Below are positions 6,859-46,863 of a stretch of DNA of 64,000 bases, piece by piece. Location of the stretch: contig NC_090377.1 of NCBI RefSeq assembly GCF_036365525.1, positions 90,139,126-90,203,125 on the forward strand, read 5' to 3'. The translations under genes and the position numbers were made by a program. This DNA comes from Heterodontus francisci (lineage: Eukaryota). The notes beneath the pieces were generated by a model. The model was not told the origin of the DNA, did no database searches, and saw only the letters and a list, made by a program, of their open reading frames with translations. Positions within the stretch are counted from its first letter, which is position 1. The number at the start of each line of letters is the position of its first letter.

Positions 6859-7712
6859 TCTTTTGGGCCTCCTTATCTCGAGAGACAATGGATACGCGCC
6901 TGGAGGTGGTCAGTGGTTTGTGAAGCAGCGCCTGGAGTGGCTATAAAGGCCAATTCTGGAGTGACAGGCTCTTCCACAGGTGCTGCAGAGAAATTTGTTT
7001 GTTGGGGCTGTTGCACAGTTGGCTCTCCCCTTGCGCCTCTGTCTTTTTTCCTGCCAACTACTAAGTCTCTTCGACTCGCCACAATTTAGCCCTGTCTTTA
7101 TGGCTGCCCGCCAGCTCTGGCGAATGCTGGCAACTGACTCCCACGACTTGTGATCAATGTCACACGATTTCATGTCGCGTTTGCAGACGTCTTTATAACG
7201 GAGACATGGACGGCCGGTGGGTCTGATACCAGTGGCGAGCTCGCTGTACAATGTGTCTTTGGGGATCCTGCCATCTTCCATGCGGCTCACATGGCCAAGC
7301 CATCTCAAGCGCCGCTGACTCAGTAGTGTGTATAAGCTGGGGATGTTGGCCGCTTCAAGGACTTCTGTGTTGGAGATATAGTCCTGCCACCTGATGCCAA
7401 GTATTCTCCGAAGGCAGCGAAGATGGAATGAATTGAGACGTCGCTCTTGGCTGGCATACGTTGTCCAGGCCTCGCTGCCGTAGAGCAAGGTACTGAGGAC
7501 ACAGGCCTGATACACTCGGACTTTTGTGTTCCGTGTCAGTGCGCCATTTTCCCACACTCTCTTGGCCAGTCTGAACATAGCAGTGGAAGCCTTACCCATG
7601 CGCTTGTTGATTTCTGCATCTAGAGACAGGTTACTGGTGATAGTTGAGCCTAGGTAGGTGAACTCTTGAACCACTTCCAGAGCGTGGTCGCCAATATTGA
7701 TGGATGGAGCAT
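6859..7712 (-). mobile_element. Young 5'-truncated RTE-clade LINE
   Basis: Open ORF (FTYLGS, YGSEAWT, RRLRWLGHVSRM, C-terminal CxxC..HxxxC); 9-bp TSD TTGAACAAT at 6850-6858 and 7713-7721; nearly identical to the copy at 56738-57965. Confidence 0.92.
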
Positions 7713-8782
7713 TTGAACAATATAGCCTACTTTTAAAGGTCATAAAAACATGTCACGACATGCCTATTTCTGTTGAGGCAAAGAATTCTAGGCTTGTACA
7801 TTTATTTGTTTATGTTACAACATTGAGATGTATGATGCCCCAGCTCAGCACGACTTATATTCTTGATTTTTTTGAACATCTATCATATATACACATCACA
7901 CTTAGATATAACATATGTCCCACAGTATGTTAATCGAATTATTTTCAATCTACTTGTTACTATTTGAGTTCAATGCATTTTGCATAGAAATCAGACACCA
8001 TTCATTTCAAGCAGCAGCTCAAGGTTTTACAACAATCACCCCTTTATTTTGACACAAAATTGTAAAAACCATTCAGTACTTTTGTAACTTTTTAGCATTC
8101 ATATATAATAACAAATAATATTTTTAATTCTGATACCTTCTGATACTTTATATTGCTTTTGCTAAGTTTTCTGAGTTTTTTTCTTACTGAAGGAGTGAAT
8201 AGTTAAAAGGCTATTTAGAAGATAGACTTCATTGGGAGTGCCTATTACTATGCTTTTAATAAGTGACTTATTTTAACTTATGTCATTCTTTAAAATCAAC
8301 ATAGCTCCATAGGGATAATGTTGTGGGGCTCTGCTGCTTACACAAGTTGGAGAACTGGGGCTTTCATGGCCCTATTTCAAATCTGCATTCACAAATAGTG
8401 AAGTTTGGCAATTGCTGACAGCTGAATCTCACAAATTTATGTCTCATATCTTTGAATAGGTGTAGAATCTATGTTAACTCTTTCAGTCACAAACACAACT
8501 CCTAATATTTCTCCAATGTTGATATTTCTACTGTAATGCAGAGAATATAACTACTTATACACAGGATGTCTTAGCTCTAAATACATCTTAATGTTTTTCC
8601 TCTTTTCTGCATCCTCACTGTGCTGAATTCAAGACTCATCATTCAGTCTCCCACTCCTACTCATTCTTCCTGGGATCTCAAAACTTTGGAACCACTTACC
8701 TCCCTCAGCCTTTGCTTTCTCCTGTAATCTTTAGATATTAATAACATTAAGAAGTTTGATGTCAATTAAGCATTGCTTCCCA

Positions 8783-19184: not shown

Positions 19185-19252
19185 AGAAATGAACAGCAGT
19201 GTCAACATCTGTGTTATTGATTGATGTTAATGGGTAAATTGAAAAGCACAAA

Positions 19253-20710
19253 ATGTGTGGCATTTGTTGTAGGTTAGTTTTAGCGCCTCAGAAAGATGTT
19301 CCTGATATTTTGGGAAAGGATATGCTTGAAAGCCTTCGACGGAGAGGTCCTAACTGTAGCCAACAGTTATCCAGAGCAGTACCTGAGCTGGGCTATAATT
19401 GCTTTTTCTCTGGTCATGTGCTTCATATGAGAGGGTGTCTAAACCCACAGCCAACGCAGGATACTCAGGGAAACCTCCTCCTTTGGAATGGGGAGGTTTT
19501 TGGAGGAATTGAAATTGGACCTGAAGACAATGACACTCGGATTATTCTTCAGCATTTGTCTTTATGTAAGAGTGAAGAATCCATTCTCTCTGTCTTTTCA
19601 TCTGTTCAAGGACCATGGGCTTTTATATACTACCAACCATCCAGTCACTGCTTGTGGTTTGGTCGAGACTTTTTTGGTCGGCGCAGTTTACTGTGGCAGT
19701 TTAAGAATGCTGAAAACTCCTGCTTTACTCTTACATCAGTGAGTACTTCTGTTCCAGAGTGTGGAAGTGTTCCCTGGCAGGAAGTACCAGCATGTGGACT
19801 TTACAAAATTGATCTCCAGAAACAATCCAATGCCAACTCATTGGCAATAACATGGTATCCATGGAAACATAGGTCCATTGAATATGAATTCAAGACTCTA
19901 CATTTAGGTGATGAAGCTCAGTTCACTGAAGAACTGCCTAATTTTGTTTCTGTGCTTTTGAATGAATCTAAACTTTTCCCCATGGCACCCATCACTCCTA
20001 TGAATTACAATATTCCAGAGTCATGTGCTGATACTGCAGTTTGTGAAACATCTTCAGTAAATGTTAAGGTTTTTCTTTCAGATGAACACAAGAAGAAATT
20101 AGTTCATCAGTTTATTGATGTTTTAAGTGAATCTGTTAGACGGCGAGTGCTTTTCTTACCGAGATGCCAAAATCACCCTGACTGTTCAGCTCAGTTCACA
20201 GTTTCTAATAAAGCAAAAGTTGCCATTCTCTTTTCCGGAGGTGTTGATTCTATGGTTCTTTCAGCCTTGGCTGACCATCATATTCCACCAGATGAATCTA
20301 TTGATCTATTGAATGTTGCCTTTAAGCAGCAGGAACAGAAAAAACAGAAAACTTCAATAAAGCAAAAGAAGAAAAACAGTGCCTCCAGTGCACCTGAAGA
20401 GGAAACTCGAAAATGTGACAATGGCAGCGAGAAAGAGCAGACTGCTTTTAATGTGCCTGACCGGATCACTGGACTGTCAGGCTTAAAAGAGTTGCAAATT
20501 ATAAACCCTTCCAGAAGTTGGAATTTTATAGAAATCAATATCACATTAGAAGAGCTGAAGGAAATGAGACAACAGCGGATTAGCCATTTAGTGCAACCTT
20601 TAGACACCGTACTGGATGACAGCATTGGCTGCGCAGTGTGGTTTGCTGCACGAGGTATTGGTACCAGCACCAGTAATGGAGAAATCCAACCGTACATCAG
20701 CACTGCAAAG
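19253..20710 (+). CDS. ASNSD1: ASNSD1 coding exon 1 (class-II glutamine amidotransferase and asparagine synthetase-like domains)
   Basis: MCGIC Ntn nucleophile, RRGP, WNGE, GRDFFGRRSL, PP-loop LFSGGVDS; donor AAG|GTGTGG. Confidence 0.96.
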
Positions 20711-21230
20711 GTGTGGTATAAAACTTCTTTTAAAAAAAAAAAAAATTACGCTCACCATTTGGAATGTAAAATTATCCATACATTCATTCATTGCATACTC
20801 TCTCCTGAAAGAGCATCACAGCATCTCTCTTTTGTGTGGCTGTTTACTGTCACTTTCTATTTAACTGATGATTTAAAGACAAGAAACTTCCATGGAAAGC
20901 ACATTCCATTTAATGTATTCCACATTATTGTTAAGGGACTTAACATTCTTTTAAATAAACTTATCCTAAACTCAAGTGAGGCCCTTACAAGTAATCTGAC
21001 AGATGCACAGATCTGGAGTAAAATAATTGTCTATAATATTATTGTGCTCAGAACACTACCACCACGTCTTCTAGTAAATTTTCCTTTTGATCTGTCCACA
21101 CTGGGGGATTTAGGCATCTAAGAATTACAATTTTTGTCCCAAGTTCTCCTTTAGTTTTTTTTGGAGGGGAATTTAAACTTTCCTCTGTGCTGCCATCCAT
21201 GATGTTGGGTTGATCTCGTTCTAAGACTAC

Positions 21231-22820: not shown

Positions 22821-24144
22821 GTAAGTCTGTGCTAACTTTGAGTGTTGAAGTAATAAAATGTAATTTAATTCGCTATTATATAGAAATTATCTTGTTAGCT
22901 GGTTTAAAATTGAAGATACAAAGATGAAGCAGAATAAGGTTGAACCCTCTCCATGCACCTTTAATTCTTGAGTTTTAATAGTGCCCTGACACATTTAAGA
23001 TGCAAGTCTACTAGATGGGCAGCTACTGTGAATCCAAAATTAAAAAGACAATCTTAATTAATTTCTCAGAACAGCAGTCTCAACCATCCGCATTCAATAA
23101 TAAAGTCAAAGGGCAGAGTATGAGAAATGGAACGGTTACAGTAGTTTAAGAGTAAATTTTTATTTTAGAGTTGGTTACTCAAGGTAATTTATTTGACTCA
23201 GTACTATTTGGTGGCATCCCAATGTGCTAATGAGAAAATGTCTCATTCCATACTACAATCAGGAAATCCATGCATGCTATTCTATTGTGTCTTAACAGCT
23301 TGAGCAATGTAGAGCGGAATCCTTGAGCTAGTTTTCCCTTCCTCCCACAAAAGCTAGCTGGGATTCTCAAAACAGACCTAAGTGAAAACTGAGCACAATT
23401 AACTGTTCAGATGAAGTTTCAAACACTTTTGAAATATTATTTTGTAACATTACCCAAGGTACCACTCTCTTCCTGTCTCATCAGTATCCATTTATACTAT
23501 CTGCTTGAATCCGGTTAAGCAAGATAAAGATTGATGCTGAAAAATGGCAACAGGAAACTACTGTAGCATGAAATCATCAAAACCCAATTCTGAAAGCAGT
23601 TGCAGCTACAGTGCTTTGAACAGTTTACCAATTATCTAGTAGCTAAAATGGAGTATAGCAATTTAACATTGACATTGTGGGCTTGTTGAACCAACCATGA
23701 CACACGAAATTTTGTGTACTCTCAATTTGGTCTAGTCTGCAGCATGCTTTTTTGAGCAATACAACCGCATTTGACACAACTCAAAATGTCTATCTCCTAA
23801 TGATTTGGACATTGCCAGTACATAATGCAGTAAACCAATATTTTAAAAAGTGGAGTTATGGCATAGAGTGGGGAAGGATATAGTCGAGGTCAGACTGCAG
23901 AATCTGTCAGTTTTAGGAAGAAAAGCTGAACAGAACAGAACAGTTGCACTAAGGCACTCGGTCATCTCCTGATGAGAAACAACTGAGCACTGATGGCAGC
24001 CTGGGAGGATGGTGCAAATTCAGCATTGAACCAGGTAGGCAAGGGTGGAAAATACAATAATTACATGAATGATCAAGAAACGTTATACAAAGATGCCCAT
24101 AAGAATAAAAGTATTAAACATAATTTTTATATTTGTCATTTCAG

Positions 24145-24400
24145 ATTTCCCTTTTTGGATGAAGCAGTTGTTTCTTTTCTAAACACACTTCCTGTGTGGG
24201 AGAAAGCAGATTTGACTCTGCCTCGAGGAATTGGCGAAAAGCTACTTCTACGAATGGCTGCAAAAGAACTCGGTCTCACTGCATCTGCTGTACTTCCAAA
24301 AAGAGCCATGCAGTTTGGGTCTAAAATTGCAAAGATGGAAAACCAAAAAGAAAAGGCCTCTGATAAGTGTAACAGGCTATTGCAAAGCTTGGTGGATTAG
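24145..24400 (+). CDS. ASNSD1: ASNSD1 final coding exon
   Basis: TTTCAG|A acceptor completes AGA; [22 protein letters not shown]; TAG ends at 24400; spliced protein 631 aa. Confidence 0.96.
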
Positions 24401-26330
24401 TCATTTATGCTGTACTCTGTTCTTCAGTGCCAGTTTCAGAAAAGGTAATGAGCTACAATATTTAATGGTGAAACTCAAAACAATCAAAAAAATATACAGG
24501 TAAGGTGCTGTTGGTCTTTCTGTAGGTTTCTCTACCAAATAGTTAATTAGATAATTAAATGAGTACTGTACACAGTTGAAGTTCAGATCTTGAAGTTACT
24601 TATTCTGGAGTTTTTAAATGTGCAAAAGAATTGCAGCTGCATTTCATATTAAATTAATTTGTTGTTTCTCCATTCAGAGTACCAGAAAACACTAACTACC
24701 ACCTTAAGTGGCTAATCTAACCATCTCAGCTAAGAAATAATTAAATATTTTTTAGAAATCTGTCTGGCCATCCAGATAAGACGATTAGCCCAGCATCTCA
24801 AAAACTAGTGTGCAAATCTGTTTCTTAACAAATGTACACTTCCTTCATGTAACTCAGAAGTCAGGCACTCTGTTAAAATCTGGTAAAGGTAGCTCACTAT
24901 TTTGATATTAGCAACAGAGTACCCCAGGAATTCCAGGTAATACAATTTGAATATGGTTCAGGTATCCCTATGTAGTTTATTTCCAGTTTTCTTTTAAGAG
25001 ATCCTGTAGAAAATGGGGAGCCTGCAAAAATATTTTCAGTATTCCAAATAGCTTTAAACTGCTGAACATCTTTGTTTTACAACTATCTATTACAGTTCTT
25101 AAAATTTCAGTGCAAATACTAGTTTAGATGTCAGTCACACAGAAAATGTAAGTTTCTTTTCTAATAGTCTGCGCTTGCTCTGAAATTGAGTTATAAATGA
25201 TCTGTGGGTAGGTAATACACTGTCAATAGGATATTAGCTTAATAGTCTAGTAGTTACTGAAAGTATGAGTTCTAGCCCTCTTGCTGCTTGGACTGCCATA
25301 ATTTGAAAGATTTTCTAAAATTAGTACAATTCTAATAACAGCAACATTGCACCTAAAAATGTACTGTAAACATTAAAAAATAAAGATACAAAGCTTGTCA
25401 CTAAGATCCATGAATTTTGCTTGCTTCAATTCCAAATGGACGCTGAACAGAAAAAGCAATGACACCACTAATACTATAATACTTAGTTCTGTTTGATCTT
25501 CTAAGTAGTTTTTTTGCATGAAACTTGGGCCTTGATGAGGCTGGCCCATACCTGTTCTACATAATGCAAAACTATAGGCAATTGCATTATACTACTTTGC
25601 ATGCTAAATAGTGGTAAAATGTATTCACTTAATTAAAATAGTTGGTAGTAAAAGTTATATTTCAGAAATAGTTTATTTCCAACAAAGGTTTAAATTCCAA
25701 ACCCACTTGGTTTGTTTGGTACAAAGGATTACTTAAAATTAGAAAGAAAATTAACTTTGTCGGTATGACCCAATAAACCTCAGAGTTCCTCCAATCAGTT
25801 CAGCTTTGCAAGTTTACAAATAAAGTGAATTTAATTTTAAAAATACTAACATTGAGGCCTTAGCATGCAATCAGTGCCAAAATGTTATCTCTGCTCGTCA
25901 ATAATTTCATAAAGGTAATTTTAAAAAAGCCCAAATTTTTTTCAAACTTCTTATACTGCTGCTTTGACATCCTGACTTCTAGCAGTTATAAATTTATAGC
26001 ACAGAAAGAGACCATTCAATCCGTCATGTCTGGGCTCTTTGCTGGAGTGATACAAATTAATTTCACTATGGTGTGCTTTCCCCATATGAGGCATTTGAAC
26101 GCCATGAATTGCAAATGCAAGAAAATCTGACCACCATTTTAGCATATTCTCTAAAGAAACTGCCATATAAATGACTATGACTTGATTTACAGACCCCTCA
26201 TTTAAAAAGAGTATTTCTTGTAGAGTCCTGTTGTACCTGAACTTTTATGGGGTCATTTTGATTATGATACTATGATTCATTTTCTTAATGAGATGTCCTC
26301 ATATGTTAGATGTACAGTCACTGATCTACT

Positions 26331-26904
26331 TATCAGGCAAGCCCCCAACCTACCAAGACAGAAGAAGTGGTCAGACCAGTTTTGATCACATGACTGACTG
26401 ACTGACTGTTGGAGGATTTGAACTCAGAAAGCCGTGTGCAACTGGCTGGAACAGAACCTCCCTCCTGCCTGCCTCCATCTCTTTCCCAAGGAACTGAATC
26501 TTGTGAAAACACATGAACCTCAGAGAAAGGTCTCCAACGTGAACAAAGTTTAAGAAGAACACTGGGCCCTAACGAACAGCAAGACTACCTACAATCAAGT
26601 GAGCTCGAAGCACAGTAAACAAGAAACTCTTCTGATTTTGCCTCAAACCCCTTCTCTACTATATTTTCCTCTCTTTTCTGCTCCATTTGCATGTGTATAT
26701 CGTGTGTGCATGCTAGCGTGGGCGCGTCTCTTATCCATGGTCGTCTACGTTTTAATAAATTTCACTTTTTTCCTTTAAACCTGGTGTGTTGGTTTCTTGG
26801 CCTTATAATTGGAAAGCTGTGAACAAGGATTCACAAAAGGAGGCGCTCAAAACACTGTTTGAAGACAGAAGATCCCTAGATACCTTTCGCACCTGGTTGT
26901 AACA
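26331..26904 (+). mobile_element. Internally deleted solo LTR, TSD TACT
   Basis: Homologous to the reverse complement of 1333-2549 at both ends; TACT at 26327-26330 and 26905-26908; AATAAA at 26754. Confidence 0.8.
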
Positions 26905-27186
26905 TACTAAATAAAATACATTCAGTCTCAATTTACTCAAGATGAGAAGCCTACGGATGTGGATTTCTGATTTTTAAAAGCAGTAATTCGGGACCCCGTG
27001 TCTCTATAGGGTATTGGGAATTAAATGCATGGCTCCAGAGATTTTCCTTTGTTTTCACCATTAACCTGTCATCTTGGAAAGCATTAACAAAAAGAAATGT
27101 GTACAAGATACCACACAAAGCTCCTTCACCACAGCTCTTAAATATTGGAAAACTGCTAGTCATTCAAATCAATCGAATTATGCTTC

Positions 27187-27280
27187 TCAACACTTCTGGA
27201 AATATCTGGTACAGTCAATGTAAGATGGAAGATTTCCAACATCAAATCGGCCACATACATGATGAACAAACACTGGTTTT
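27187..27280 (-). CDS. Nucleotidyltransferase coding exon 8 (KPVFVHHVCGRFDVGNLPSYIDCTRYFQKC*)
   Basis: TTTTGCAG|A acceptor, phase matches; GRFDVG is the C-terminal (W/F)xD(I/V)G motif of NTP_transferases. Confidence 0.88.
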
Positions 27281-27359
27281 CTGCAAAAGGAAAAGAAAAT
27301 AAATAGCACATGGCATAACATTAAAAGTAAAATGAAAGTTCCTTGAAGCAGTCTCTCAC

Positions 27360-27418
27360 CTTGAGTGGACCCAACATAAGAAGTTGCCTGGTGCATCCTT
27401 CTCTTCCAAGGGCGAATT
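27360..27418 (-). CDS. Nucleotidyltransferase coding exon 7 (NSPLEEKDAPGNFLCWVHS)
   Basis: TTTGTAG|AAT acceptor, AG|GTGAGA donor; DAPGNF motif. Confidence 0.88.
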
Positions 27419-28048
27419 CTACAAAATAAAACCCTTTTTAAAAAAAGTATTTATATAAACGATCAAAATAAACATGTCTATATTTTTCCAAGAAAAGTGG
27501 GTGAAAGGAAAAATAGTACATTGGAACTTTTGGGTCAATTGGAAGAATTTATGCAGGTGTCATCACTATGCTAAATTTACAAGCAGTTTGCAGCACATTT
27601 GATTCAAGCATATAATTCCAATTATTTTACCCTAACTATAATACAGGAGTGACTACATTTCAAATGTAATTAATGGGCTGTGAAGCATTTGGGACATTGA
27701 GTATTTAAAGATGCTATATAATACGGGTTCTTTGTTTCTATATCAAAATGCAGTCCATGCTATAGAATTCCAAATTAAAGCAGAACATTTAAATTCAAAA
27801 TATTGGTCAAAAGTATACATAATCAATCCACCACTAAATTCTGCAAAGGAGACAGTAGGATAATGTAGAAAATAATAATTTGCATAAAATGCTGAATTAA
27901 TAAATAGGACATGATTCAATTATTCATCAATTTGCTAATTGTTCCTGATGTTGAAAGTCCTGATTCAGTTGTAACAGTTCCTAATAAACTAATTGGGCTT
28001 TTCTTTTAGCAGAGTTTAACTTAGTTGTGTTAATGCCAACAAATGTAC

Positions 28049-28117
28049 CTGCTTTTCTTGAAGAAATTTTGCTATCAAAGGAATCGTACTTTTTGAGTAT
28101 ATATAGAAGCATGGGCA
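28049..28117 (-). CDS. Nucleotidyltransferase coding exon 6 (CPCFYIYSKSTIPLIAKFLQEKQ)
   Basis: TCTTTCAG|TGC acceptor, CAG|GTACAT donor, 69 nt, phase 0-0. Confidence 0.85.
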
Positions 28118-28368
28118 CTGAAAGACAGAAAATTTTTGTAATTACTGAATTCTTAGTTTAGATATTACTCAATACAAGTAGTATTTAATGTGCTAAAAAT
28201 TTTGCCTGAAAAGAAACAAGTATCAGAACAAGTTACTTCAGTACAGCAAGATTCTGCTTCAGTAAAAATAACGCTTTTGAAGTAACTTGTTCCAATAGTA
28301 GATTTTTTTTCAAATTAAAAAGGTACAGTGTGTGGTTAAGAAATGTCAACTTAGAACAAAAATCTTAC

Positions 28369-28466
28369 TGCTCTACGAGATGTTGTTTCAGTAGAGCTGG
28401 GTTTTTCTTTAAATGCAGTGACTTGGAACTTTTCATCAATTTCTAAAATGCCAAACTTTGTAGTTT
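28369..28466 (-). CDS. Nucleotidyltransferase coding exon 5 (ETTKFGILEIDEKFQVTAFKEKPSSTETTSRRA)
   Basis: CTCAGCAG|AA acceptor, GCA|GTAAGA donor; FG(I/V)...FxEKP sugar-phosphate binding motif. Confidence 0.9.
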
Positions 28467-28552
28467 CTGCTGAGAGGAGAAGTTATGTTAATTATTTCCC
28501 TGAAAGATCAGTTCATGAAAGGAAGGAGCTTTGTAATAAATTTTGGATTGAC

Positions 28553-28668
28553 CTTCATCTTTGCATCGGTAAGACAGAACCAAATTGCTGTCACAGTTAA
28601 TTTTCTGCAGCTCAGCAAATTGTGCAAGGACACCAGATAGGCTGAAGTCTTCATAGAACAGAGTGTCC
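28553..28668 (-). CDS. Nucleotidyltransferase coding exon 4 (GDTLFYEDFSL..SYRCKDE)
   Basis: TTCTCAG|G acceptor completes GGDTLF (GD motif); donor G|GTCAAT keeps frame with the next exon. Confidence 0.85.
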
Positions 28669-28759
28669 CTGAGAAAAATAAATATTGTCAAAGTGGAAGT
28701 CAAAACATACAATAAGTTATTAGAACTCTTTTCAACACAATAAGTTCAATTTATAATAG

Positions 28760-29270
28760 TATGCCTTTGTCACCTCCAGACTCAACAACTGCAATGCTCT
28801 CCCATTCTCCAGCCTCCATAAATTTCAGCTCATCCTAAACTCTGCTACTTGTATCCAAACTCACCAAGTTCAGTTCACCATTTATTCCTGTCCTTACTGA
28901 CTGGCATTAGATCCTGGTTCCCCCATTCTCTCCAACTGAAAATACTCATCTGTGTTTAAATCCTCTCAAGGCCGCCTCCATCCTTACAAGTTCCCCACCC
29001 CCATTCCTCTGACTCTGGTTTCTTATGCATGCTCCAACATCAGTAGCTGTAGCACCTGGGCCCATGCTTTGGAATTCAATCCCTTAAATCCTTCTGCCTC
29101 TCCTTCTGCTATTCCATTTCCCTCTTTTCCTTTACGACCATCCTTAAAACCATCTCTTTGACTACATTTTTGGTACCACCTAAACATTTCCTGTGCATCT
29201 ATTTATTTTTGACTATGCCTTTGAAGCACCATGGCATGTTATTCTATGTTCAAAGTGCTATAGAATTACA
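28760..29270 (+). mobile_element. Degraded L2-like LINE 3' fragment
   Basis: CCTCCAGACTCAACAACTGCAATGCTCTC..ACTGACTGGCATT..GAAGCACCATGGCATGTT..GTGCTATAGAA, an L2-type tail. Confidence 0.55.
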
Positions 29271-29289
29271 AGTTAAGAACTCCATAAAT

Positions 29290-31955
29290 TACTTAACCTC
29301 CTGAGGAAGGTACAGGCTAGGAACATTCCAACAAGGGTGAAAGGTAGGGAAACCAAGAACAGGACTGCTTGGTTGATGAGGGAGATAGAGATGATAAAAC
29401 AAAAAAAGAGGATACATGATGCATGTCAGGTGAACTCATCAGGTGAGAACCAGGCTTAGGATCTTCTACCGGCATGTAAATAGTAAGTGAGTAGTAAGAG
29501 GAGGAATGGGGCCTATTAGGGACAGAGAGGGTAATATATGCTTAGAGGTGCAGGGCAAGACTAATATACTTCATGAGTACTTTGTATCAGTGTTCACTAA
29601 GGAGGCTGACAAAATATCAGTAGAAGCAAAGAGTAGAGGCAATGGATAGGATAAAAAATTTTATTTAGAGATACAGCACTGAAACAGGCCCTTCGGCCCA
29701 CCGAGTCTGTGCCGACCAACAACCACCCATTTATACTAACCCTACACTAACCCATCCCCACTATTCTCCTACCACCTACCTACACTAAGGGCAATTTACA
29801 ATGGCCAATTTACCTATCAACCTGCAAGTCTTTTGGAGGTGGGAGGAAACCGGAGCACCCGGAGGAAACCCACGCAGACACAGGGAGAACTTGCAAACTC
29901 CACACAGGCAGTACCCAGAATCGAACCCGGGTCGCTGGAGCTGTGAGGCTGCGGTGCTAACCACTGCGCTGCCCTTGAGAGGAGGGAGGTATTAAAAGGT
30001 TGGCTATGCTTAGGGTAGATAGGTCACCTGGTTCAGATGGCTTGCATCCCAGGTTGCTAAAGGAAGTGGGGACAGAGATAGCTTAAGGGCTTGCCATAAT
30101 CTTCCAATATTCCCTGAATACAGGGGAGGTGCCAGAGGATTGGAGAGTAGCAAATGTGAAACCCTTATTCAAGAAAGGGTGTAAGGACAGTCCTAGCAAC
30201 TACAGGAGAATTAGTTTAACATCAGTGGTGGGTAAGGTTTTAGAAACTGTAATCAGAGAAAATATCACAAACACTTAAGCGAAGTTCGAGTTAATTAAGG
30301 ATAGCCAGCATGGATTTGTAAAAGGCAGATCATGCTCGACAAATCTAATTGAAATTTTTGATGAAGGGAATGCGGTGATGTTATGTGGATTTTAAGAAAG
30401 CATTTGATATGGTACCACAAAAAGAAGCTCGTGGAATAGGAGGGTCAGTGTCCAATTGGATAAAAAAAATTGGCTTATGGACAGAAAACAGCAAGTCATA
30501 GTAAATGGTTGCCTTTCAGAGTGGAGGAGATAGTGGTGTTCCCCAAGGGTGAGTTCTGAGGCCACTGCTTTTTTGATATATATAAGTGACTTGATGAAAG
30601 GTCACAGACCTGAAACATTAACTCTGCTTCTCTCTCTCCACAGATGCTGCCAGACCTGTTGAGGATTTCCAATTACAGCACAGAAGGAGGCCATTCAGCC
30701 TGTCGTCTCCATGCGGCTGAAAAAACTAGCCACTCAATCTAATCCCACCTTCCAGCACCTGATCTATAGCCTTGCCAGTTACAGCACTTCAGGTGCATGT
30801 CCAGGTAAATAAAATTGAGGGTTTCTGCCCTCACGACCTTTCCTGGCAGTGAATTCCAGACACCCACCACCCTCTGGGTGAAAAACGTTTTCCTCACATC
30901 CCCTCTAATCCTTCTACCAATCACCTTAAATCTGTTCCCCCTGGTAACTGATCTCTCTGCTAGGGGAAACAGGCCCTTCCTGTCTACTCTATCTAGGCCC
31001 CTCATAATTTTGCACACCTCTATTAAGTCACCCTTCAGCCTCCTCTGTTCTAAGGAAAACAACTCTAGCCTATCCAATCTCTCCACATAGCTGCAACTTT
31101 CGAGCGCTGGCAACATTCTTGTAAGTCTCCTCTGTACTCTCTCCAGAACAATTATGTCCTTTCTGTAATGTGGTGACCAGAACTGTACACAGTACTCCAA
31201 CTGTGGTCTAACCAGCGTTTTATACAGCTCCAGCATTGCATCCCTGCTTTTGAATCCTATACCTCGGCCAATAAAGGAAAGCATTCCATATGCCTTCTTC
31301 ACCCTCTATCTACCTGTCCTGCCACCTTCTGTTTTTATTTCAGATTTCCAGCAAAGGCAGTATTTTGCTTTTATTTTAGAAGTTATGCTGGACCTTTATA
31401 AAGCTCTGGTTAGGCCCCAACTGGAGTATTGCATCTTGTTCTGGTCACCACACTTCAGGAAGGCTGTGAGGGTCCTTGAGGGGGTGCAGAGGAGATTTAC
31501 CTGAATGGTTCCAGGGATGGAGGATTTTAGTTTACAAGGTTGGAAAAGCTGGGTTTGTTCTCCTTAGAACTAAGGACATTGAGGGAAGATTTATTAGAAG
31601 TGTACAAGATTATGGCAGGCCTAGATAAGTTGGAGAAGAAAAAGCTGTTCCCATTAACAAATAGTACAAGGACTAGGGGACACAGATTGCAAGTTTTGTG
31701 CAAAAGATGCAGGGGGAATATGAGAAAGCACTTTTTTATGCAGGTAATGACCTGGAACTCGCTGCCCACAAGGTTGGCGGAAGCAGAGACGATCAATGAC
31801 TTCAAGAGGAAGTTGGATGGCCACTTGAAAGAAATAGACTTGTAGGACTGGGGATTGAGCCGGGGAGTGGGATTGACAGCATAGCTCCGTGGAGGGCCGG
31901 CATGGACTCAATGGGCCGGATGGCCTCATTCTGTGCTGTAAATGACTCTGACTCT
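29290..31955 (+). mobile_element. CR1 LINE (+) carrying a nested HE1 SINE, a Penelope repeat (30590-30670 and 31327-31376) and a second CR1 (30672-31327, -)
   Basis: RT motifs ([34 protein letters not shown]) and the minus [25 protein letters not shown]. Confidence 0.85.
29663..29972 (-). mobile_element. HE1-like V-SINE
   Basis: Reverse complement of the SINE at 54940-55275. Confidence 0.85.
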
Positions 31956-33247
31956 AAGTTATAGAGATTTCAGTGCAAGAGGCCATTCAGCACAGCATTC
32001 ATGTGGTAGTGCTATATCCTCAGAGGTATCCAATCCCTGAACTCTCTTTAATACTTTTCCTCTTCGTTTAACCTTAAGTTAAATGAATGAGTTGGTTTTA
32101 ATATTCAGTCATGATGAAGCATTTCATATTCACGTAAAGACATTTCTTCTAGACACTTGTTTACATTTTTAGTGTTAATCCTAAATTTAATGTTAATGTT
32201 TAGTGTTAATCCTAAATCCTTATCAATTCAAGCATTGGAAATAATCGTTCATTATTTATTCTTTCAAACTCTTCAAAACCTTTCATATTTCTATTGGATC
32301 TCCCCCCCTGTCCCCCCCCCCCCCCCTCCCCCAATTACCTCAGCTTTGGTGAATATAGTTCTAGTTTTTCTCCCTTAGTATGTGGGATACATCAACCTAT
32401 CCTTGGTAATCACAAATACATTTAAAAGGAAATGTGAAAGTTTCTCCTTGCTCTAAAAGAAATTGAGTATAAACTGCAGGAGATTAATCATTTTTTTTCA
32501 GGTTTGATGCTGTAATTCAGACTACTGCCAAAAACGATGATATTGGTAGACTTTAGAAAAATCACTTAATCTGGCAAGTCTTTGCAAAACTTCAATGAGA
32601 AACAAAATCTGGAAAAGTAAAATGAAATGCATTTTTAAAGGACAATTTAAATGGTTGATGTAAGGTGGTAAGTGGTAAGGACACATGTGCTTGAGAAAAG
32701 GAGAATTATATCAAGACCATCGTGAGAGAATAAGGAAATTAAAATAAACCCAATGGCCAAGCAAAAATATTTGAAAATACATTAGGAATCAAAAGGTAGT
32801 GACCACTAGGAGTCATCTAAAAGTCAATGAGGAGGATGAGAACAAGCAAAGGAAAATAGATGATAATGAAACAGAAAGGTAGGTTGTGGATACCAGCTTA
32901 AGGGATGCCATTTTTAAACTATACATATAGTTAATATAGGGATAAAGACCAGACAGGCTCTTTAAAGGATAAGCTGGGAAGAAATAATATAAAATAAATT
33001 GCAATTTGATGAATTATTTATCAGTTAGTGCTACCTTGTGAGCTATAAACTTCTTAAAGCTATTGAACAGTTCATTTTAAAATTGAATACCCTTTCTATT
33101 TACAAGTTGGTAAAAAATAAAATAGTATGTACAGCAAATGAAAATCTATAACTTAAAAATAGTATATTTAAGCAATTTGCCCTATTTTAAAACCTTTACT
33201 AGCTATTCTGCTTATATTCTTTACTACCTACAAACATTGTTGCTTAC

Positions 33248-33327
33248 CCGCCTAGGACCAATACATTGTCATTGATGTTAAACTGAGTAATGACAAGCTG
33301 AAGACAAGCGATAGCACCCAACCGTTC
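33248..33327 (-). CDS. Nucleotidyltransferase coding exon 3 (ERLGAIACLQLVITQFNINDNVLVLG)
   Basis: CCACAG|GAA acceptor, GG|GTAAGC donor; RLGAI motif. Confidence 0.9.
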
Positions 33328-34230
33328 CTGTGGAGGAAAAAAAGTAATTTTTTTTTTTAAACTGTCCAGATCACTGAGTTATGGCTTTTACTTAACTTTA
33401 AATAATTCAGTTAATTTGTACACCGTCTATAAACAGTTTTGCTCACCAAGTTTTCGATGCATATAGGTCAGTTAATGTGAAAATGCTATAAAGATGGAGA
33501 CACCCCTTCCTACCTCCTTTCCTTCCCTGGGACTTTGAGCAAAGGTTTCCTGTATAATAATTTCGACTGAGGTTCAGCAAAATTCCTTTTAAAGTGTACT
33601 TAACTTAAAAATTTACAGCTGCTTTATACAACTATTGAAAGGAACCCAAGACTCGTGTCAGCATTACTGATTTCATTTCAATTCCATCTCCACTCAAAAA
33701 AAAATCCTCCTTTGGCATTCAGTAACTAACGAGCTCACAACTATTACATTCAGTTATTTGGGACAGTAAGACTAAATCATATCATGTGATAGAGCCACAA
33801 ATCATTGCATCACTCAAATCAATTATACAGTATAGGAATGTGTTTCAAGGTAGTAATAATTGATGGCTCAGATGACATCAATTAACCGCCTAAGATTCAA
33901 TCTCAGTTTATAATCTTTTATTACAGCTTTGTAATGTTCTATCTAGGTGTCATCTGTACACTAGTATGGTACAAACCTGGAGGCCAAAGTGAATAATAGC
34001 ACTTACAGATTTTTTAATAAAGAATTTTACTTCTAACATTGCGCATATCCACATTTTCCGAACAAATATATTGCACTTCTACAATGCAATTAAACATCAA
34101 AGTTAACCAGATGAAGTTTAACTGTGCCTGGAAATTAATTGTAATTTTCACTAATGATCTAATGTTTCTAAAAGTGATAGTTCTGATTTATACATGATAT
34201 ATCCGGGCTATTGCAGTTCTGGACACCTAC

Positions 34231-34320
34231 CTCGTTGCTTCTCGTTCCATCATTTAGAACTTTAACTAGTCGGAATTCCTTTGCCCAGTCTTCAAACTTT
34301 ACATAATAGAGATCGTTCGT
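34231..34320 (-). CDS. Nucleotidyltransferase coding exon 2 (TNDLYYVKFEDWAKEFRLVKVLNDGTRSNE)
   Basis: TTGCAG|ACG acceptor, GAG|GTAGGT donor, 90 nt; NDGT..NE motif. Confidence 0.9.
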
Positions 34321-35094
34321 CTGCAAGGATTACTGTTAGTTAGCAATTATTGACATAACAGAGTGATATCTTTGTAGTGTCTGCTAGTTACATGCTTTAA
34401 AAGACTGTTTTGATTGACCAATTTTCTTTGTTTAAAAAAAGCAAAAATAGATTAAAACTGCACAAGTTCAATTTTTAATTGTACCTCCCAAACCAACATT
34501 TTTCAGAGCACTACTTCTTTGTGAACTGCTGAATGAGAAAAAGACGAGCTTTAGTGGGAATTAAATCAGTGACGCTATTTTAAAAGTTGAATTTGCATTT
34601 GGAATAAACAATGCACAAGAAAGAATGGGTTCATTTATTCCTCATCGCCTTTCCTATGTATCCTTAAGAACAAAATTATTACAAATACTCGTGGGCATAC
34701 AATTTCAATCCTGTGTCAAAATTGTATAATAAAATCTTAAGTTGCAAAACAGAATCTCTACGAACTCTAGTGCAGTACTTCAATACTACGCGAGGACAGA
34801 GGCACAAGGCTTTCCCGATTTTGCTTGACAATTTTTTTTAGCTGGATCTGGTACCATCCAATATCAAAACTGAGGCCTATGGATGTTTTTTCTTTTTGGC
34901 AGTGATGTGTTAAAAATCATGTACTTGGTTCCCCTTTATCTGTTCAGTTTTAAAAAAAGCTTTTCTACATCCTCCAATTGCAAAGTCCTAGCACCAAAAC
35001 ACAGCAAAAAGATTAAAATAGCATTAAATGTACCAATAAAACTCTTAAGTTTTCTGTCACAAATTTGTCAATGTAAAATAGAAAATCAATTAGA

Positions 35095-36000
35095 ATCATA
35101 GAATAATAGACCATAGAAGCAGGCATCATGCCTGTGCCAGCTCTTTGCAAGAGCTGTCCGTCTCATTCCACTACTCTTTCCCCGTAGCCCTACAAATTTT
35201 TCCTCTTCAAATATTTATCCACTTTTCTTCAGAAAATGATTATTGAAACTGCTTCCACCACACTTTCAGATAGTTCATTGCAAATCATCATAACTCGCTG
35301 CTTCAATATTTTTCCTCCTGTTGCTTCTGTTTTTTTTATGCCAATCACCTTGATCTGTGTCCTCTGGTTACTGACCCTTCTGCCACTGGAAACAGTTTCT
35401 CCTTAGTTACTCTTCCAAAGCCTTTCAAGATTTTGAACACCTCTATAAATTTGCCCCTTTAACCTTCTCTGATCTAAGCCGAACAATCCCAGTTTCTCTA
35501 TCCATATAACTGTAAACTTTCATCCCCAACCATAAATCTCTGCACCTGCTCTAAGGCCTGGCATCCATCCTAAAGTGTGGTGCCCAGAATTGGACACAAT
35601 ACTCTAGCTGAGACTTAAGCAGTGTTTTGTAAAGGTTTTATATAACTTCCTTTCACTTGTACTCTAAGCCTCTTTTTATAAAGCCAAAGATACAATATGC
35701 CTTTTTAACAGCCTTTTCAAATTGTCCTGGCAACTTCAAAGATTTGTGTACATACACAGCTCCAGGTCTCTCTCTTCCAGCACCCCCTTTAAATTTTATA
35801 TTTGCTTTAAGTGTTTCTATTCCCTCTTCTCATTTTTCCTATCAAAATTAATCAGTTTACACCTCTACATTAAATTTCACCAGCGTATGCCCTCCTGAAG
35901 TCTGTTACTATTCTTCTCATTTTCTATTACATTTCCAAGTTTTGTATCATCTGCAAACTTTGAATTTATGCTGTGTATACCCAAATCTGGGTCATTAATT
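35095..36000 (-). mobile_element. CR1 LINE 3' fragment
   Basis: AAGTTTGCAGATGATACAAAA (KFADDTK) and [10 protein letters not shown] on the minus strand, CR1 tail. Confidence 0.8.
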
Positions 36001-36076
36001 GTAACTAAACATTTGGAGGCACATCACAATTTAACTTATGCAGTTTTCTGAAGAAAAGCTCAAAATGTAGACATAC

Positions 36077-36268
36077 GATAACAAAAACTGCATCAATACA
36101 GTTGATCTTGTCTATTGCTGCCATCCAATGACTGATAAGTGCCTGATTTCCTACTGGTAGAAGGGGCTTGGGGATGCCATAGAGATGCTTGAAAACTCCA
36201 CTGGTATCATTCTGTAGGTCACGATTGAATCTTGTACCATAGCCAGCAGCCAGAATAATAGCCTTCAT
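36077..36268 (-). CDS. Sugar-1-phosphate nucleotidyltransferase (NTP_transferase family) coding exon 1
   Basis: MKAIILAAGYGTR..PKPLLPVG signature; acceptor CCAACAG|G at 36296 gives 28 nt of UTR; donor ATC|GTATGT; spliced product 265 aa. Confidence 0.92.
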
Positions 36269-36921
36269 GATATCATTACTTTCTGTGCAGTATAGCCTGT
36301 TGGAGAAACATTTTTAGATAAAGCATAATCATTATGTGATGCTACCAATATATTAAACATTTATTACAGATTTTTCTTACTTAAAAGAAGTACTCCAGGG
36401 TTTTATGCTATATTGGTCTTATCGTATATATTGTAGTCCCATTTTACCTTCTGCCTACTTAATATAAAAATTTTCACTTGATTCGCTCTTGATTCACTGA
36501 CAGTTCAGCATTCAGCCATCAAACAACCTAATCGTGGAGTATCTTAAAATTAAAGGAAACATAAAGTTTGTATAGTTATTTTTAAAATAACCAAAAATCA
36601 GTCAGTAATTTGATTCTTAATAAATAGATGACATCCCTATACAAAACTGCTACATTAAAATAGCATGAGAATATTCTCCACGTTTTAAACAGGAAAATGT
36701 GTACACTTACTAAGATTTAGAAGGGTAGATTTTCACTTGATGAATTAAAAAAAAATCTAGTTTGTCAAAAGTAAAAGCAGTATTAAAATTTACAAAACAG
36801 GCTTAAACAAAAAGCACCAGTCACTTCAAATTAACATCAACAGGCACTTAAGTACTTCCTGATAGAATCTACAACCTAGTTATCTTTTGAAACTAAAATA
36901 TCACAATGCCTTTTAAGCTTT

Positions 36922-40450: not shown

Positions 40451-40739
40451 TCATCTTCAATCGAGAACAGGGAAAAATTGCCTGTAAACAGCAAGAGAAA
40501 AATAGCAGGGAATTGAGCGTCCAGCTAGTACATGCCAGAACCTGACAGCGAAGATGTTGGATGGCAGCGGCTGTCTGTTACTGTGCAGCCACTAACTGAC
40601 TATCCAGGGACGGTCTATTCAACGACTGTCGGCAGGAAAGAAGTTGACGATGTTCACTCGAAGTCAATGATTCGTGTCTCCAGCTCCGTAGACAATTTCA
40701 ACGCCATTTGACGCTGATCACCGAGGTGTACTGACTTCA

Positions 40740-40975
40740 AAACAGAGTATTACCTTCGAGTCCCGACTCACCGATCCACATCAACACAGGAACACTTCAC
40801 TCCCTTCCCTGCCCTGGCCCTGAGAAACCGGAACCGGAATCCCCCCTCCGGCCCCAGAGACTCACGGTCCAGCATCGCGTTGTCATGGAGACGGCGTCCA
40901 GTCTCCGCGGGCCTCGTGAGTAACGGACAAAAAAAGCGAGATCAGGTGCGGCCGTGAAACCATCGGTTTCTTCAG
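40740..40975. promoter_or_regulatory. CpG-rich bidirectional promoter for the nucleotidyltransferase (-) and ANKAR (+)
   Basis: CpG cluster, tandem CCGGAA ETS sites at about 40828-40839, GTGAGT donors on both strands (minus at 40865 and about 40771; plus at 40916). Confidence 0.7.
40879..40892. promoter_or_regulatory. RFX X-box GTTGTCATGGAGAC
   Basis: 14-bp near-palindrome (GTCTCC-AT-GACAAC on minus) fitting the X-box consensus of ciliary gene promoters. Confidence 0.7.
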
Positions 40976-40977
40976 CT

Positions 40978-41458
40978 CGGGAGACAGTTTATTAACCTCA
41001 CGGTAACTTTATCAATACCGGAGACAGTCACTGTAACGTTACCAATGCGAGAGACAGTTGTTCGACCTCATTATAACCTTACGAATAGTAGAGACAGTTT
41101 ACCGACCCCACTTTAACTTTACCAACATTGGAAATAGTTTCCTGACCGCCCTGTAACTTTGCCAAGTTTACAGTTTACCAACCTCACTCTAAATTCATCA
41201 ACTTTAGAGACATTTTACCGAGCACACTGCGACGTTACCAACTTTAGAGACAGTGTATCGACCTCAATGTGATCTTACCAATACTAGTAACAGTTTACCA
41301 ACTTCACTGCAACTTAACGAAGTTTAGAGACAGTTTACCAACTTCGCTGTGACTTGAATAGCTTTAGAGGGAGTTTACCAAACACACTGTAACCTTACCA
41401 ATATCAGACACAGTTTACCGACCTGTCACAAAGTTTAGAGAAAGTTTCCCGACCTTAC
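40978..41458 (+). repeat. 40-bp minisatellite, block 1
   Basis: Diverged units of GAGACAGTTTACCAACCTCACTGTAACTTTACCAATACTA. Confidence 0.9.
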
Positions 41459-42965
41459 GTAGAAACATAGAAATATGGAAGAGTAGGAGTAGGCTATTCG
41501 GCCCTTCGAGTCTGCACCGCCATTCAATACGATCATGGCTGTCATCCAAACTCAGTACCCTGTTCCCGCTTTCTCCCCGTATCCCTTGGTCCCTTTAGCC
41601 CTAAGAACGATATCTAACTCTTTCTTGAATATATTTAATGATTGGCCTCAACTGCTTTCTGTGGAAGAGAATTCCACAGGTTCACCACTCTCTGGGTGAA
41701 GAAATCCTTCCTCATCTCAGCCCTAAATGGCTTACCCCTTATCCTTAGACTGTGACCCCTGGTCCTGGACTCCTCTGCCATCGGGAACATCCTTCCTGCA
41801 TCTAGTTTGTCCAGTCCTGTTAGAATTTTGTAGGTTTCTATGAGATCCCCTCTCATTCATCTAAACTCTAGCGAATACAAGCCTAATTGACTCAATCTCT
41901 CTTCGTACGTCAGTCCTGCCATCCCAGGAATCAGTCTGGTGAACCTTTGCTGCACTCCCTCCATTACAAGAACATCCTCAGATAAGGAGACCAAAACTGC
42001 ACACAATACACTAGATGTGGTCTCACACTTGTATAACTGCAGCAAGACATCCTTGCTCCTGTGCTCAAATCCTCTCACTATGAAGGCCAACATACCATTT
42101 GCCTTCTTAACTGCCTGCTGCACCTGCATGCTTACTTTCCGCGACTGGTGCACAAGGACACCCATGTCTCACTGCACCTCCCTCTTTCCCAATCTATCAC
42201 CGTTCAGATAATAATCTGCCTTCCTGTTTTTGCCACCAAAGTGGATAATCTCACATTTATCCTCATTATACTGCATCTGCCATGTTTTTGCCCAGTCACT
42301 CAACCTGTCCAAATCACACTGGAGCTTCTCTGCATCCTTCTCACAGCTCTCACTCCCACCCAGTTTTGTGTCGTCTGCAAACTTGGATATATTACATTTA
42401 ATTCCCTCATCTATATCATTAATATATATTGTGAATATTGATACTTTATTATTATAAGAAAATTATAATACTGCTCCCTGCGGTACCCCATGAGTCACTG
42501 CCTGCCACTCAGAAAAAGACCTGTTTATTCCTACTCTTTATTTCCTGTCTGCCAACCAGTTCTCTATCCATGTCAGTGCCTTACCCCCAATCCCATGTGC
42601 TTTAATTTTGCACGCTAATCTCTTATGTGGGACCTTATCGAAAGCCTTCTAAAAGTCCAAATACACCACATCACTGGTTTTCCCTTATCTATTCTACTAG
42701 TTACATCCTCAAAAAAGTCCAGTAGATTTGTCCAGCATGATTTCCCTTTTATAAATCCATGTTGACTTTGTCCGATCCTGTCATTGTTTTCCAAGTGCTC
42801 TGCTATTACATCTTTTATAGTGGACTCTAGCATTTTCCCCACTACTGATGTTAGGCTAACCAGTCTATAATTCCCTGTTTTCTCTCTACCTCCTTTTTTA
42901 AATAGTGGGGTTACATTAGCTACCCTCCGATCCATTGGAAATGTTCCAGAGTCTATAGAATTTTG
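41459..42965 (-). mobile_element. CR1/HER1 LINE 3' 1.5 kb
   Basis: ANVTPLFKKG..NYRLVSLTS, SQHGFIKGKSC, KFADDTK, RGDLIETYK, RVVNLWNSLP; TTTCTATG-type tail at 41460. Confidence 0.9.
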
Positions 42966-45010: not shown

Positions 45011-46037
45011 AATACATTCTAAGACTTTGAAGAGGAAATGGAGGTTGATAATGGGGCAGTTATTTGCCAGGATGGAAGGATCAAGGTTTTTATGAGGAGT
45101 GTATGAGGATAGCAGAATTGAAAGGAAGGAGGATAGTCCTAGGGGAGAAGGAACCATTTACAATATTAGCTAACATGGGGGCCAGGAAGGGTAGTTGGGT
45201 AGTCAGCAGTGTATTGGAATAAGGTTAAGAGAGTAAGTAGGAGGAGGGTCTCATGGATAAGGTGATCTCAGAAAGAGCCTGGAGTACATGGGAGAGAATC
45301 CAGAGAATGATGTAAGTTCAGCGCTCAGGCAGGGGAATCTTGGGAAAACCATGGCTGAAAGGGAAAAGAGAAGGGAGGGTGCAGCAGAGGCAGCTGAATG
45401 AATGCTGTCAGTCTTAATGACATCTTTGTTGATAAGAGCTTCACATGCTTGTTGGAGGTAAGGATGTAAGGGGCAGGGTAGAATGGTGGAGGGAGACAGT
45501 TGGTAGTGGGGAAAAGACACTGGGGGCTATCTTTGCACTCCAGGATGATTGTGGAGTAGTGAACAGTTTAGCAAAGGAGAGTAGGGTCTGATAATGCTTG
45601 ATATAGTCCAGCCAGATCTGTTAATGAATGGCTAAACCAGTTGTGCACCGTAAACATTCAAGGCTGCACCATTTGGACTTAATGGAGTGAACGTGGTGGT
45701 CATACCAGAAGAAATGAACAGGAAAAAATACAAATAAACCTACCAATCTTCATTGATAAATAAACCTTTTAAATTTGTATCTTTTTTGTTCACAAAGGCC
45801 TATTACAATTTATTATCATAAATAACAACATCATTGGTTTCAGAAATGTGCAGACCTCATTATAGACAGAGACTATAGATTAATTATAAGAAAATAAAAT
45901 GTTTTTTCTACCAATGCACTAAAACTGGACTGATACTTCGTAGGAGGAAGTTGGCAGAAAGTGAAGACTTGCCAATCTGGATTCCTCTGGAAACTAAAAC
46001 AGGGCAATTAGAATAGTGAAAGGCCTGTTTGGCTGCT

Positions 46038-46566
46038 ATGGCATTGAAAATGAGTGCAAGTGCTGTCCTTGGCAAATACAACTTGAGTGATCTACAGGAA
46101 TTGCTCACCACCGCCTCCTGCAGCTGGCTACAGTCCACTGACGAGTTTCACTTTCCAGTAGAGTACCCCAAAGGACTCACAAACCAAATGAAAGACTTCA
46201 GCTATCCCAATGCTGTAATTCTAGTTCCAGTGGTACCAGATGCTCCTTTGAATTATAAAGAAGTCCAACAAATTCTAAGAGAATTGGTGATGGGTATTTA
46301 TATTCTGAACCAAGTTCCAATTATTTATTTAGATGGCAACTATGATTGCAGTACCACATGTCTTCTGTCACCAGCTTATCATGACACTCGAATTGGGCAG
46401 ATTTTGATAAACGTGGACTACAATATGAAAGCACTTTGGCATGGAGCCTACATGCCAACAGAAAAAAGAAAGCGATTTTCAGAAGTGTGGCGCTCCAATC
46501 TGGCTGTAGATGTCAATGGAAGTCCAAAAGCAAAAGAAGATATACTTTCTGAATTTCTTAAAGCAG
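46038..46566 (+). CDS. ANKAR: ANKAR first coding exon
   Basis: QELLTTA..QILREL..PAYHDTRIGQILINVDY..KALWHG matches the recalled ANKAR N-terminus; order ASNSD1-ANKAR as in human; donor G|GTGAAG; start codon inferred. Confidence 0.9.
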
Positions 46567-46863
46567 GTGAAGTTCTATGAAACATTACACTTGTTAAACA
46601 AATTTATTTTTGTCAAGCAACACTAGATTATCTGTAGCAGGTAAACATGGAAATATTAACTGCTATTGATACCTTTGAAGAGTAGATACAATAGTTGTGC
46701 AGTGTTGTAATTTGGAAATATAGAGGTACTTTGTGACATAGTTGGACACAAGCTCAGATTCAGCCTAGACTGATGGTTTCCACTTGTCTGCTAGCTGCAT
46801 GGATGCTATATGAAGTGAGTTTGGGCTTGTCAACCCAGAATCCACACAAAAAATAGCATCAAA

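Follow-up and report, generated by a model that had tools for sequence, protein, structure and literature searches.

UDP-glucuronic acid feeds the synthesis of hyaluronan, chondroitin and heparan, and sharks are largely cartilaginous. Among the closest described systems to the gene analysed here is GKUP (glucuronokinase with putative uridyl pyrophosphorylase), whose zebrafish kinase is specific, with a Km of 31 μM; kinase activity was found for both the zebrafish and the Xenopus protein (PMC3938481). In standard assays the pyrophosphorylase domain was reported to be inactive, as it also was in yeast and for the Xenopus orthologue, UDP-glucuronate appearing only as a trace after 70 h, and a second fish route to this sugar nucleotide has accordingly stood half proven since 2014, its pyrophosphorylase step hardly detectable (PMC3938481). 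The authors suggested that some modification or partner protein was absent; according to them BLAST gave no other zebrafish homologues, and stand-alone forms were known in coelacanth and sea urchin (PMC3938481). Here we describe a concrete candidate for that step, a stand-alone nucleotidyltransferase gene on the minus strand of a 64,000-nt window from the horn shark Heterodontus francisci (NC_090377.1, 90,139,126 to 90,203,125; all coordinates below are positions in this window). With a probability of about 0.5, its product is a UDP-glucuronate pyrophosphorylase (EC 2.7.7.44) acting after the GKUP kinase, a reading based on the fusion partners of its relatives and on a Gly-Asp-Thr/Arg246 signature.

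An eight-exon nucleotidyltransferase gene

The nucleotidyltransferase gene is real. Reconstruction from the letters of the window gave eight minus-strand coding exons with consistent phases, separated by introns with GT-AG ends (7/7) and joined to 798 nt that encode 265 residues and a stop. Exon 1 (36077-36268) holds the ATG, the GxGTR loop with Arg13 and the catalytic Lys34; the NDGT..NE nucleobase-loop insertion begins in exon 2 (34231-34320), and RLGA and the beginning of GGDT lie in exon 3 (33248-33327), NExRLGAI and GGDTLF each being interrupted by an intron. Exon 4 (28553-28668) carries the metal-binding Asp122 and Thr123, exon 5 (28369-28466) Gly165 and the EKP sugar-phosphate motif, exon 6 (28049-28117) CPCFY with Tyr197, exon 7 (27360-27418) DAPG with Asp223, and exon 8 (27187-27280) RFDVG with Arg246 and Asp248, followed by the stop. 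A 5' non-coding part of exon 1 (36269-36296) is preceded by a pyrimidine tract and an AG acceptor; since this acceptor at 36296 lies just upstream of the ATG, at least one more 5' exon is likely. The spliced translation is identical at 265/265 positions to a Heterodontus francisci protein at NCBI (P0002), named 'glucose-1-phosphate thymidylyltransferase isoform X2'; isoform X3 (P0001), named zgc:136439, skips exon 5 and then changes frame. The intact 265-residue frame of the first-pass annotation was thus recovered with every motif it had quoted, all on the minus strand within 36268-27187, with the correction that annotation of the gene exists already, in the form of several automatic names that conflict. 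The NCBI names of the relatives conflict likewise, spanning UTP, ATP, GTP and dTTP enzymes.

Orthologues from sharks, rays, chimaera, ray-finned fishes and amphibians share 57-90% identity, which excludes a chance origin of the reading frame. Vertebrate orthologues comprise 265-275 residues. The suggested orthology to zebrafish zgc:136439 was confirmed by teleost proteins so named, which share 57-63% identity with the shark protein across 98-100% of its length, and by a single branch of all 7 vertebrate rows in the tree described below (SH-aLRT 99). No study of this protein was found in the literature, although expression or proteomics tables may still list the gene.

From sequence and model, the product is predicted to be a sugar-1-phosphate nucleotidyltransferase of the GT-A fold in which every catalytic residue is retained. 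PF00483 (NTP_transferase) was passed with 76.6 bits against a cut-off of 21.2 over residues 2-260. Of NCBIfam, 21 families matched and none exceeded its curated cut-off (best 49.9 bits against 292), those of GalU (TIGR01099), RmlA (TIGR01207), GlgC (TIGR02091), MurU and HddC included. An AlphaFold model built from a 90-row alignment (pLDDT 97) consists of one alpha/beta GT-A domain with a single terminal helix and matches RmlA and GalU over its whole length (Z 25-26, rmsd 2.1-2.6 Å over ~230 residues). The solved relatives, RmlA, GalU, GMPPA/B and a phosphonate cytidylyltransferase, are only 18-22% identical and reach nearly equal Z scores, which makes the fold uninformative on the substrate. 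Only 15 residues follow RFDVG in the shark protein, and 15-24 follow the DxG motif in the family; this short tail and the single-domain model argue that a C-terminal left-handed beta-helix is absent, as had been proposed, and together with 20-21% identity to GMPPA/GMPPB chains they uphold the earlier exclusion of GMPPA/GMPPB and eIF2B.

Residue counts were made on 122 full-length vertebrate-type proteins, that is 131 matches minus P0001, P0031 and 7 sequences under 255 residues, with unnamed rows counted as vertebrate by similarity. Arg13, Lys34, Asp122, Glu180 and Lys181 are invariant (122/122) and Asp248 is kept in 121/122; in alignments with solved enzymes the set falls on the motifs GxGTR, K, GD, EKP and DxG. 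In RmlA, the same motifs have been assigned to nucleotide, sugar-phosphate and Mg binding (PMC8606822).

Kinase fusions, signature residues and the candidate substrate

A full HMMER scan gave 2229 representatives with E values of 0.001 or below, of which 150 were listed and 30 looked up, and a quick IQ-TREE phylogeny (LG+G4, SH-aLRT only) was computed from 66 rows with RmlA and GalU as outgroup. One clade of 45 rows (SH-aLRT 97) unites stand-alone forms of vertebrates, invertebrates and fungi, as well as unnamed ones, with 14 proteins in which the subfamily domain, its catalytic residues intact, is fused ahead of a GHMP kinase with the motif GNPSD; for the fused set, 11 longer relatives were aligned and 5 partial ones inspected. 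GNPSD occurs in a sequenced peptide of lily glucuronokinase (PMC2823444). Two of the fused proteins are named glucuronokinase by JGI, a red alga and two protist transcriptomes are among their named sources, and for one fused protein a chordate GKUP cluster ranked first in the Atlas.

The stand-alone and fused members share a signature. Thr123 is found in 122/122 vertebrate-type, 22/24 other stand-alone and 13/14 kinase-fused proteins, whereas 85/85 prokaryote-type members (77 genome loci after one RmlA-like row was dropped, 3 viral contigs and 5 proteins) have Asn there, Gly-Asp-Asn in place of Gly-Asp-Thr. Arg246 is kept in 121/122, 24/24 and 14/14, respectively, and varies in prokaryotes. 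A similar change is seen independently at this position elsewhere: among metagenome loci with a glucuronokinase-like kinase, 80 of 405 of which were kept, 13 have a GalU-type neighbour (L093, L135, L138, L144, L147-L149, L154-L156, L160, L166, L168) and 4 more an RmlA-like gene, and in 13/13 of the GalU-type neighbours GD(T/S/C) replaces xDD; among the solved GalU chains shown, 0/8 carry one of these three residues. A hydroxyl instead of Asp or Asn, together with the arginine, would fit a C6 carboxylate. Glucuronate 1-phosphate was not accepted by an RmlA with GDN (PMC8606822). Apart from these loci, viral contig L170 carries a glucuronokinase-like GHMP kinase (2998-4014 of that contig) between recA-like and queuosine-pathway-like genes (a queE match, and a queD-like gene by motif); this kinase perhaps serves phage DNA or tRNA modification.

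In the proposed route, the GKUP kinase domain would make glucuronate 1-phosphate as the first salvage step, presumably in the cytosol and from glucuronate set free by inositol oxidation or glycan turnover. The stand-alone enzyme would then join this product to UTP, base and sugar both being predicted, to give UDP-glucuronic acid. The sugar phosphate would attack the alpha-phosphate of the nucleotide in an Mg-dependent reaction that releases pyrophosphate, as is established for RmlA/GalU-class enzymes. By such a division of labour the stand-alone protein would supply the activity barely detected in the N-terminal domain of GKUP.

GKUP itself appears to be a separate gene, as judged from a primer-derived start of MICILLVAG (primers from PMC3938481) against MKAIILAAG in the shark protein and from the absence of a named chordate GKUP among the 35 longer matches, in which protist fusions were present. 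No C-terminal GHMP kinase belongs to the shark gene, which stops after residue 265 and gave no GHMP match. On sequence grounds the stand-alone gene is a catalytically complete paralogue found in the same animal groups as GKUP, and the GKUP domain appears as a more distant paralogue than the placed protist and algal fused domains, one that may lack signature catalytic residues. The first-pass annotation had put the gene in one subfamily with the pyrophosphorylase domains of fish glucuronokinase fusions; this is upheld for kinase-fused domains as such, but those placed are of protist or algal origin. Activity solely in a complex with the GKUP N-terminal domain, to which the protein would contribute as either catalyst or activator in the manner of GMPPB/GMPPA, would fit the remoteness of that paralogue, the unidentified protein cofactor that has been proposed (PMC3938481), and a mucoromycete GKUP-like cluster in which 31% still match PF00483. 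We regard such an arrangement as very improbable, given that the family has no long C-terminal part (15-24 residues, as above) and that 90% of the chordate GKUP cluster match PF00483 (Atlas).

Prokaryote-type relatives suggest a different substrate, glucose. In 80 genome loci (L001-L080), mostly Omnitrophota, the gene follows ptsI in 69 and precedes metK in 65; a glucose/mannose-phosphate isomerase (phosphoglucose isomerase) gene stands beside it in 18, and ugd (UDP-glucose dehydrogenase) precedes it in 5. In the phylum of G002 a run ptsIIA-yvcK-HPr-ptsI-[pgi]-NTase-metK-ahcY-pfkA is conserved, and in viral contigs the gene precedes a UDP-glucose dehydrogenase gene in 2/3 full-length loci. That phylum has the gene in 95/101 of its incompletely assembled genomes (G002, G011-G110) and galU in 0/101; galU over the cut-off was also found in 0/10. 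Forms joined to galactokinase (P0160) and GalE (P0198) are present as well. The prokaryote-type subfamily is therefore likely, on sequence evidence, to be an unrecognised class of UDP-glucose pyrophosphorylase replacing GalU, and the shark protein could be an additional pyrophosphorylase for UDP-glucose, or for UDP-hexoses broadly, redundant with UGP2 and for this reason lost in amniotes. We consider this, the main alternative, unlikely for the shark: the eukaryote-type clade differs at position 123 from every prokaryote-type member and has Arg246 fixed, its sole recurring kinase partner is of the glucuronokinase type, and the 80 loci, coming mostly from one phylum, represent few independent events. 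Fusions to MetK (P0152, P0154) were examined for a role in SAM metabolism, which was rejected, since the adjacent metK explains them.

A further set of candidates comprises another sugar 1-phosphate (galacturonate, xylose or arabinose) or GTP, CTP or dTTP, in a salvage route new to animals. The glycine of the GalU/RmlA glucose pocket is Cys195 in 121/122 vertebrate-type proteins and Ala or Pro in the fused ones, which indicates an altered sugar pocket. Firmicute-type members (L171, L173, P0140-P0150) are paired with a galactokinase-like kinase that scores below the galactokinase cut-off, followed in L173 by ugd; this kinase, which we take to resemble plant galacturonokinase, makes a uronate salvage module possible there, and L171, L173 and P0140 may be counted in favour of another substrate, as may the conflicting NCBI names. 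Automatic names, however, are no evidence, and in these data the eukaryote-type clade shows no link to a kinase acting on those sugars, so that we consider these substrates decidedly improbable.

Several points weigh against UDP-glucuronate pyrophosphorylase as the function. Asp88 presumably stands where RmlA and GalU have Gln, and the base cannot be predicted from it. The GalU-substituting and galactokinase contexts described above indicate a subfamily that acts on more than a single sugar or has broad specificity. Glucuronokinase-like kinases were found near the gene in 0/80 of the prokaryotic genome loci and in 0/151 genomes of the phylum of G002, the latter from incomplete assemblies and a search without positive control. 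Bacterial glucuronokinases adjoin GalU-type enzymes, with members of this subfamily beside them in 0/80 metagenome loci and fused to them in none; animal or fungal GKUP was not found in the longer proteins, the representatives, the metagenome kinase loci or the viral contigs. The 13 GalU-type sequences include near-duplicates. The fused domains form a branch of their own (SH-aLRT 80), and the stand-alone branch may therefore have another substrate. The Asn replaced by Thr123 is part of an Mg-stabilising motif (PMC8606822), so that Thr123 may reflect the metal site or common descent and not the sugar. Finally, no assay of any member of the subfamily was found in the literature.

Distribution, genomic neighbourhood and transcripts

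Named stand-alone forms come from fishes, caecilians, frogs, salamanders, tunicates, a hemichordate, a sea star, an annelid and a sponge and, outside animals, from two fungi (a chytrid and a mucoralean fungus) and one amoebozoan. The named matches fall in groups with reported GKUP, namely fishes, frogs, tunicates, polychaetes and mucoralean fungi (PMC3938481). The 45-row clade is nested within prokaryote-type members, the order of most deeper forks being tentative, and points to an old eukaryotic gene of a prokaryotic class, neither a fish novelty nor a fish-level transfer. Of the earlier labels, 'bacterial-type' thus describes the fold class but not the origin of the gene, and retention in fishes stands without being confined to them. 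No amniote was met among 30 named matches of the first search or among 97 named matches in the best 120 of 4561, a coverage by which amniote absence is suggested and not demonstrated. The legend to Fig. 2 of PMC3938481 states that higher animals and humans have no homologous pyrophosphorylase. Loss in mammals is consistent with these searches and with the literature, no mammalian genome having been scanned directly.

A search of a phage collection gave no match to the subfamily; plasmid matches comprised 20 records, 18 of them haloarchaeal, with no consistent neighbours in the 3 examined. Fusions with MtnA-like, DJ-1, E1-like and OSGEPL1 parts were taken as probable read-through of neighbours. 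Two divergent 641-residue proteins, P0133 (Asterias amurensis) and P0169, share one branch; P0133 combines the domain with an aldo-keto reductase and is possibly a real echinoderm fusion tied to sugar-acid or ascorbate metabolism.

A wider and more tentative proposal, which we put at clearly less than even odds, is that the gene encodes the active UDP-glucuronate pyrophosphorylase that animals have seemed to lack. A two-gene salvage route of GKUP kinase and this enzyme, with a degenerate pyrophosphorylase domain in GKUP, would then run in many invertebrates as well as in sharks, bony fishes and amphibians. Both genes would have been lost together on the way to amniotes, near their origin, leaving mammals wholly dependent on UGDH. 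If the gene does provide the pyrophosphorylase step, this would help to explain the residual glycosaminoglycan in zebrafish ugdh mutants, set right many automatic annotations that conflict, and complete the enzyme pair needed for a UGDH bypass. A paper on human UGDH deficiency describes such a bypass as of therapeutic interest and unproven in humans (PMC6992768). Were the shark protein a UDP-glucose enzyme instead, it would still define a subfamily that seems to replace GalU across a bacterial phylum.

The gene had been placed between ASNSD1 and ANKAR. On the left, the plus-strand exon 19238-21121 (a 627-codon open reading frame) gave weak GATase_7 and Asn_synthase matches, both below cut-offs, which fit ASNSD1; the last exon of this gene lies at ~24143-26602, tail to tail with the nucleotidyltransferase gene. 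The right-hand neighbour, with plus-strand coding exons such as 46020-46580, we take to be ANKAR-like; it gave no Pfam or PDB match. A cattle gene list gives PMS1, ORMDL1, OSGEPL1, ANKAR and ASNSD1, with none named between the last two in that list (PMC7464420). Frog protein P0034, an OSGEPL1-named N-terminus joined to a zgc:136439-type enzyme, suggests the same gene neighbourhood in amphibians. Between the converging 3' ends of the nucleotidyltransferase and ASNSD1-like genes, a plus-strand AATAAA overlaps a minus-strand ATTAAA at 26751-26759, possibly a shared poly(A) site, although within a high-depth repeat bin.

The nucleotidyltransferase gene stands head to head with the ANKAR-like exons across the sole CpG-rich segment at 36-47 kb (40501-41500), where CpG observed/expected is 0.93 and 0.90, against 0.05-0.43 in the other 20/22 bins; from its composition this segment is likely to be a shared bidirectional promoter. 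It contains a minus-strand donor at ~40771, so that the further 5' exon may lie near 40.8 kb, and, at 40879-40892, an X-box-like palindrome, the consensus being the one we assume and one mismatch being allowed. Chlamydomonas flagellar FAP182 (PDB 6u42 chain 7H) was matched by the family profile at positions 3-144 (E 3e-11). Palindrome, shared upstream region and FAP182 match could speak for a ciliary or sperm function outside metabolism, under joint regulation with ANKAR. The X-box pattern, however, occurs at 9 places in the 64 kb, FAP182 ranks below ~38 ordinary nucleotidyltransferases, and the strict retention of catalytic residues favours an enzyme; we give such a role next to no credence.

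Contigs from four of eight sequencing runs, seven of the eight being guessed to be RNA, were compared with the window. Among the joints listed for these runs, a table dominated by repeats, no exon-exon joint was seen directly. In contigs of runs X1 and X2 the match to exon 8 begins exactly at acceptor 27280 and continues into a probable 3' untranslated region (26813-27186, minus strand; to 26813 in X1 and 26842 in X2). Upstream of the match they hold 371 and 424 more letters, close to exons 7-4 plus part of exon 3 (342 + 29) and to exons 7-3 (422), which is a weak hint of a spliced transcript. Several unnamed 274-residue orthologues lie on contigs of ~1 kb (e.g. P0094, 956 bases), and we infer spliced mRNA in relatives. 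Within intron 3, an exon-like minus-strand stretch (32340-32454) with AG/GT ends and stops in 3/3 frames is possibly a cryptic or poison exon; run contigs cross it unspliced. SINE and LINE copies lie inside the gene at ~29600-31950, and intronic LINE remnants (reverse transcriptase, DUF6451) at 56663-57907 and 6910-7752.

Comparison with known systems

The shark gene resembles zebrafish GKUP in its ~260-residue domain of bacterial class and in its occurrence in fishes, frogs, tunicates, polychaetes and fungi but not mammals (PMC3938481). It differs in standing alone and in being known from sequence, whereas GKUP is kinase-fused and its domain nearly inactive. Human GMPPB/GMPPA and eIF2B gamma/epsilon share the GT-A nucleotidyltransferase domain (7d72: Z 25.3, 21% identity), but the beta-helix is lacking in the shark protein, and profile E values for them are 2e-15 to 1e-6, against <=1e-100 in its own family.

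GalU (TIGR01099), RmlA (TIGR01207) and the cyanobacterial UDP-glucose pyrophosphorylase tlr0611 (PDB 8x7s) agree with it in fold (Z 25-26) and catalytic motifs. They are nevertheless only 18-22% identical, with the shark protein scoring 27-36 bits against cut-offs of 327-361, and it is set apart by an 11-residue insert after GxGTR, the NDGT..NExRLGA base loop, DAPG, a short C-terminus, and GDT where the others have GDN or xDD. Plant USP falls within the larger UGPase/UAP class of eukaryotes, of which no chain was found among the 60 PDB matches listed. USP and the glucuronokinase GlcAK correspond to the proposed reaction and pathway position (PMC2823444), and USP is said in PMC3938481 to be absent from animals. 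The shark protein is thus best described as combining GalU/RmlA-like chemistry with the pathway position of plant USP, and as a member of neither family.

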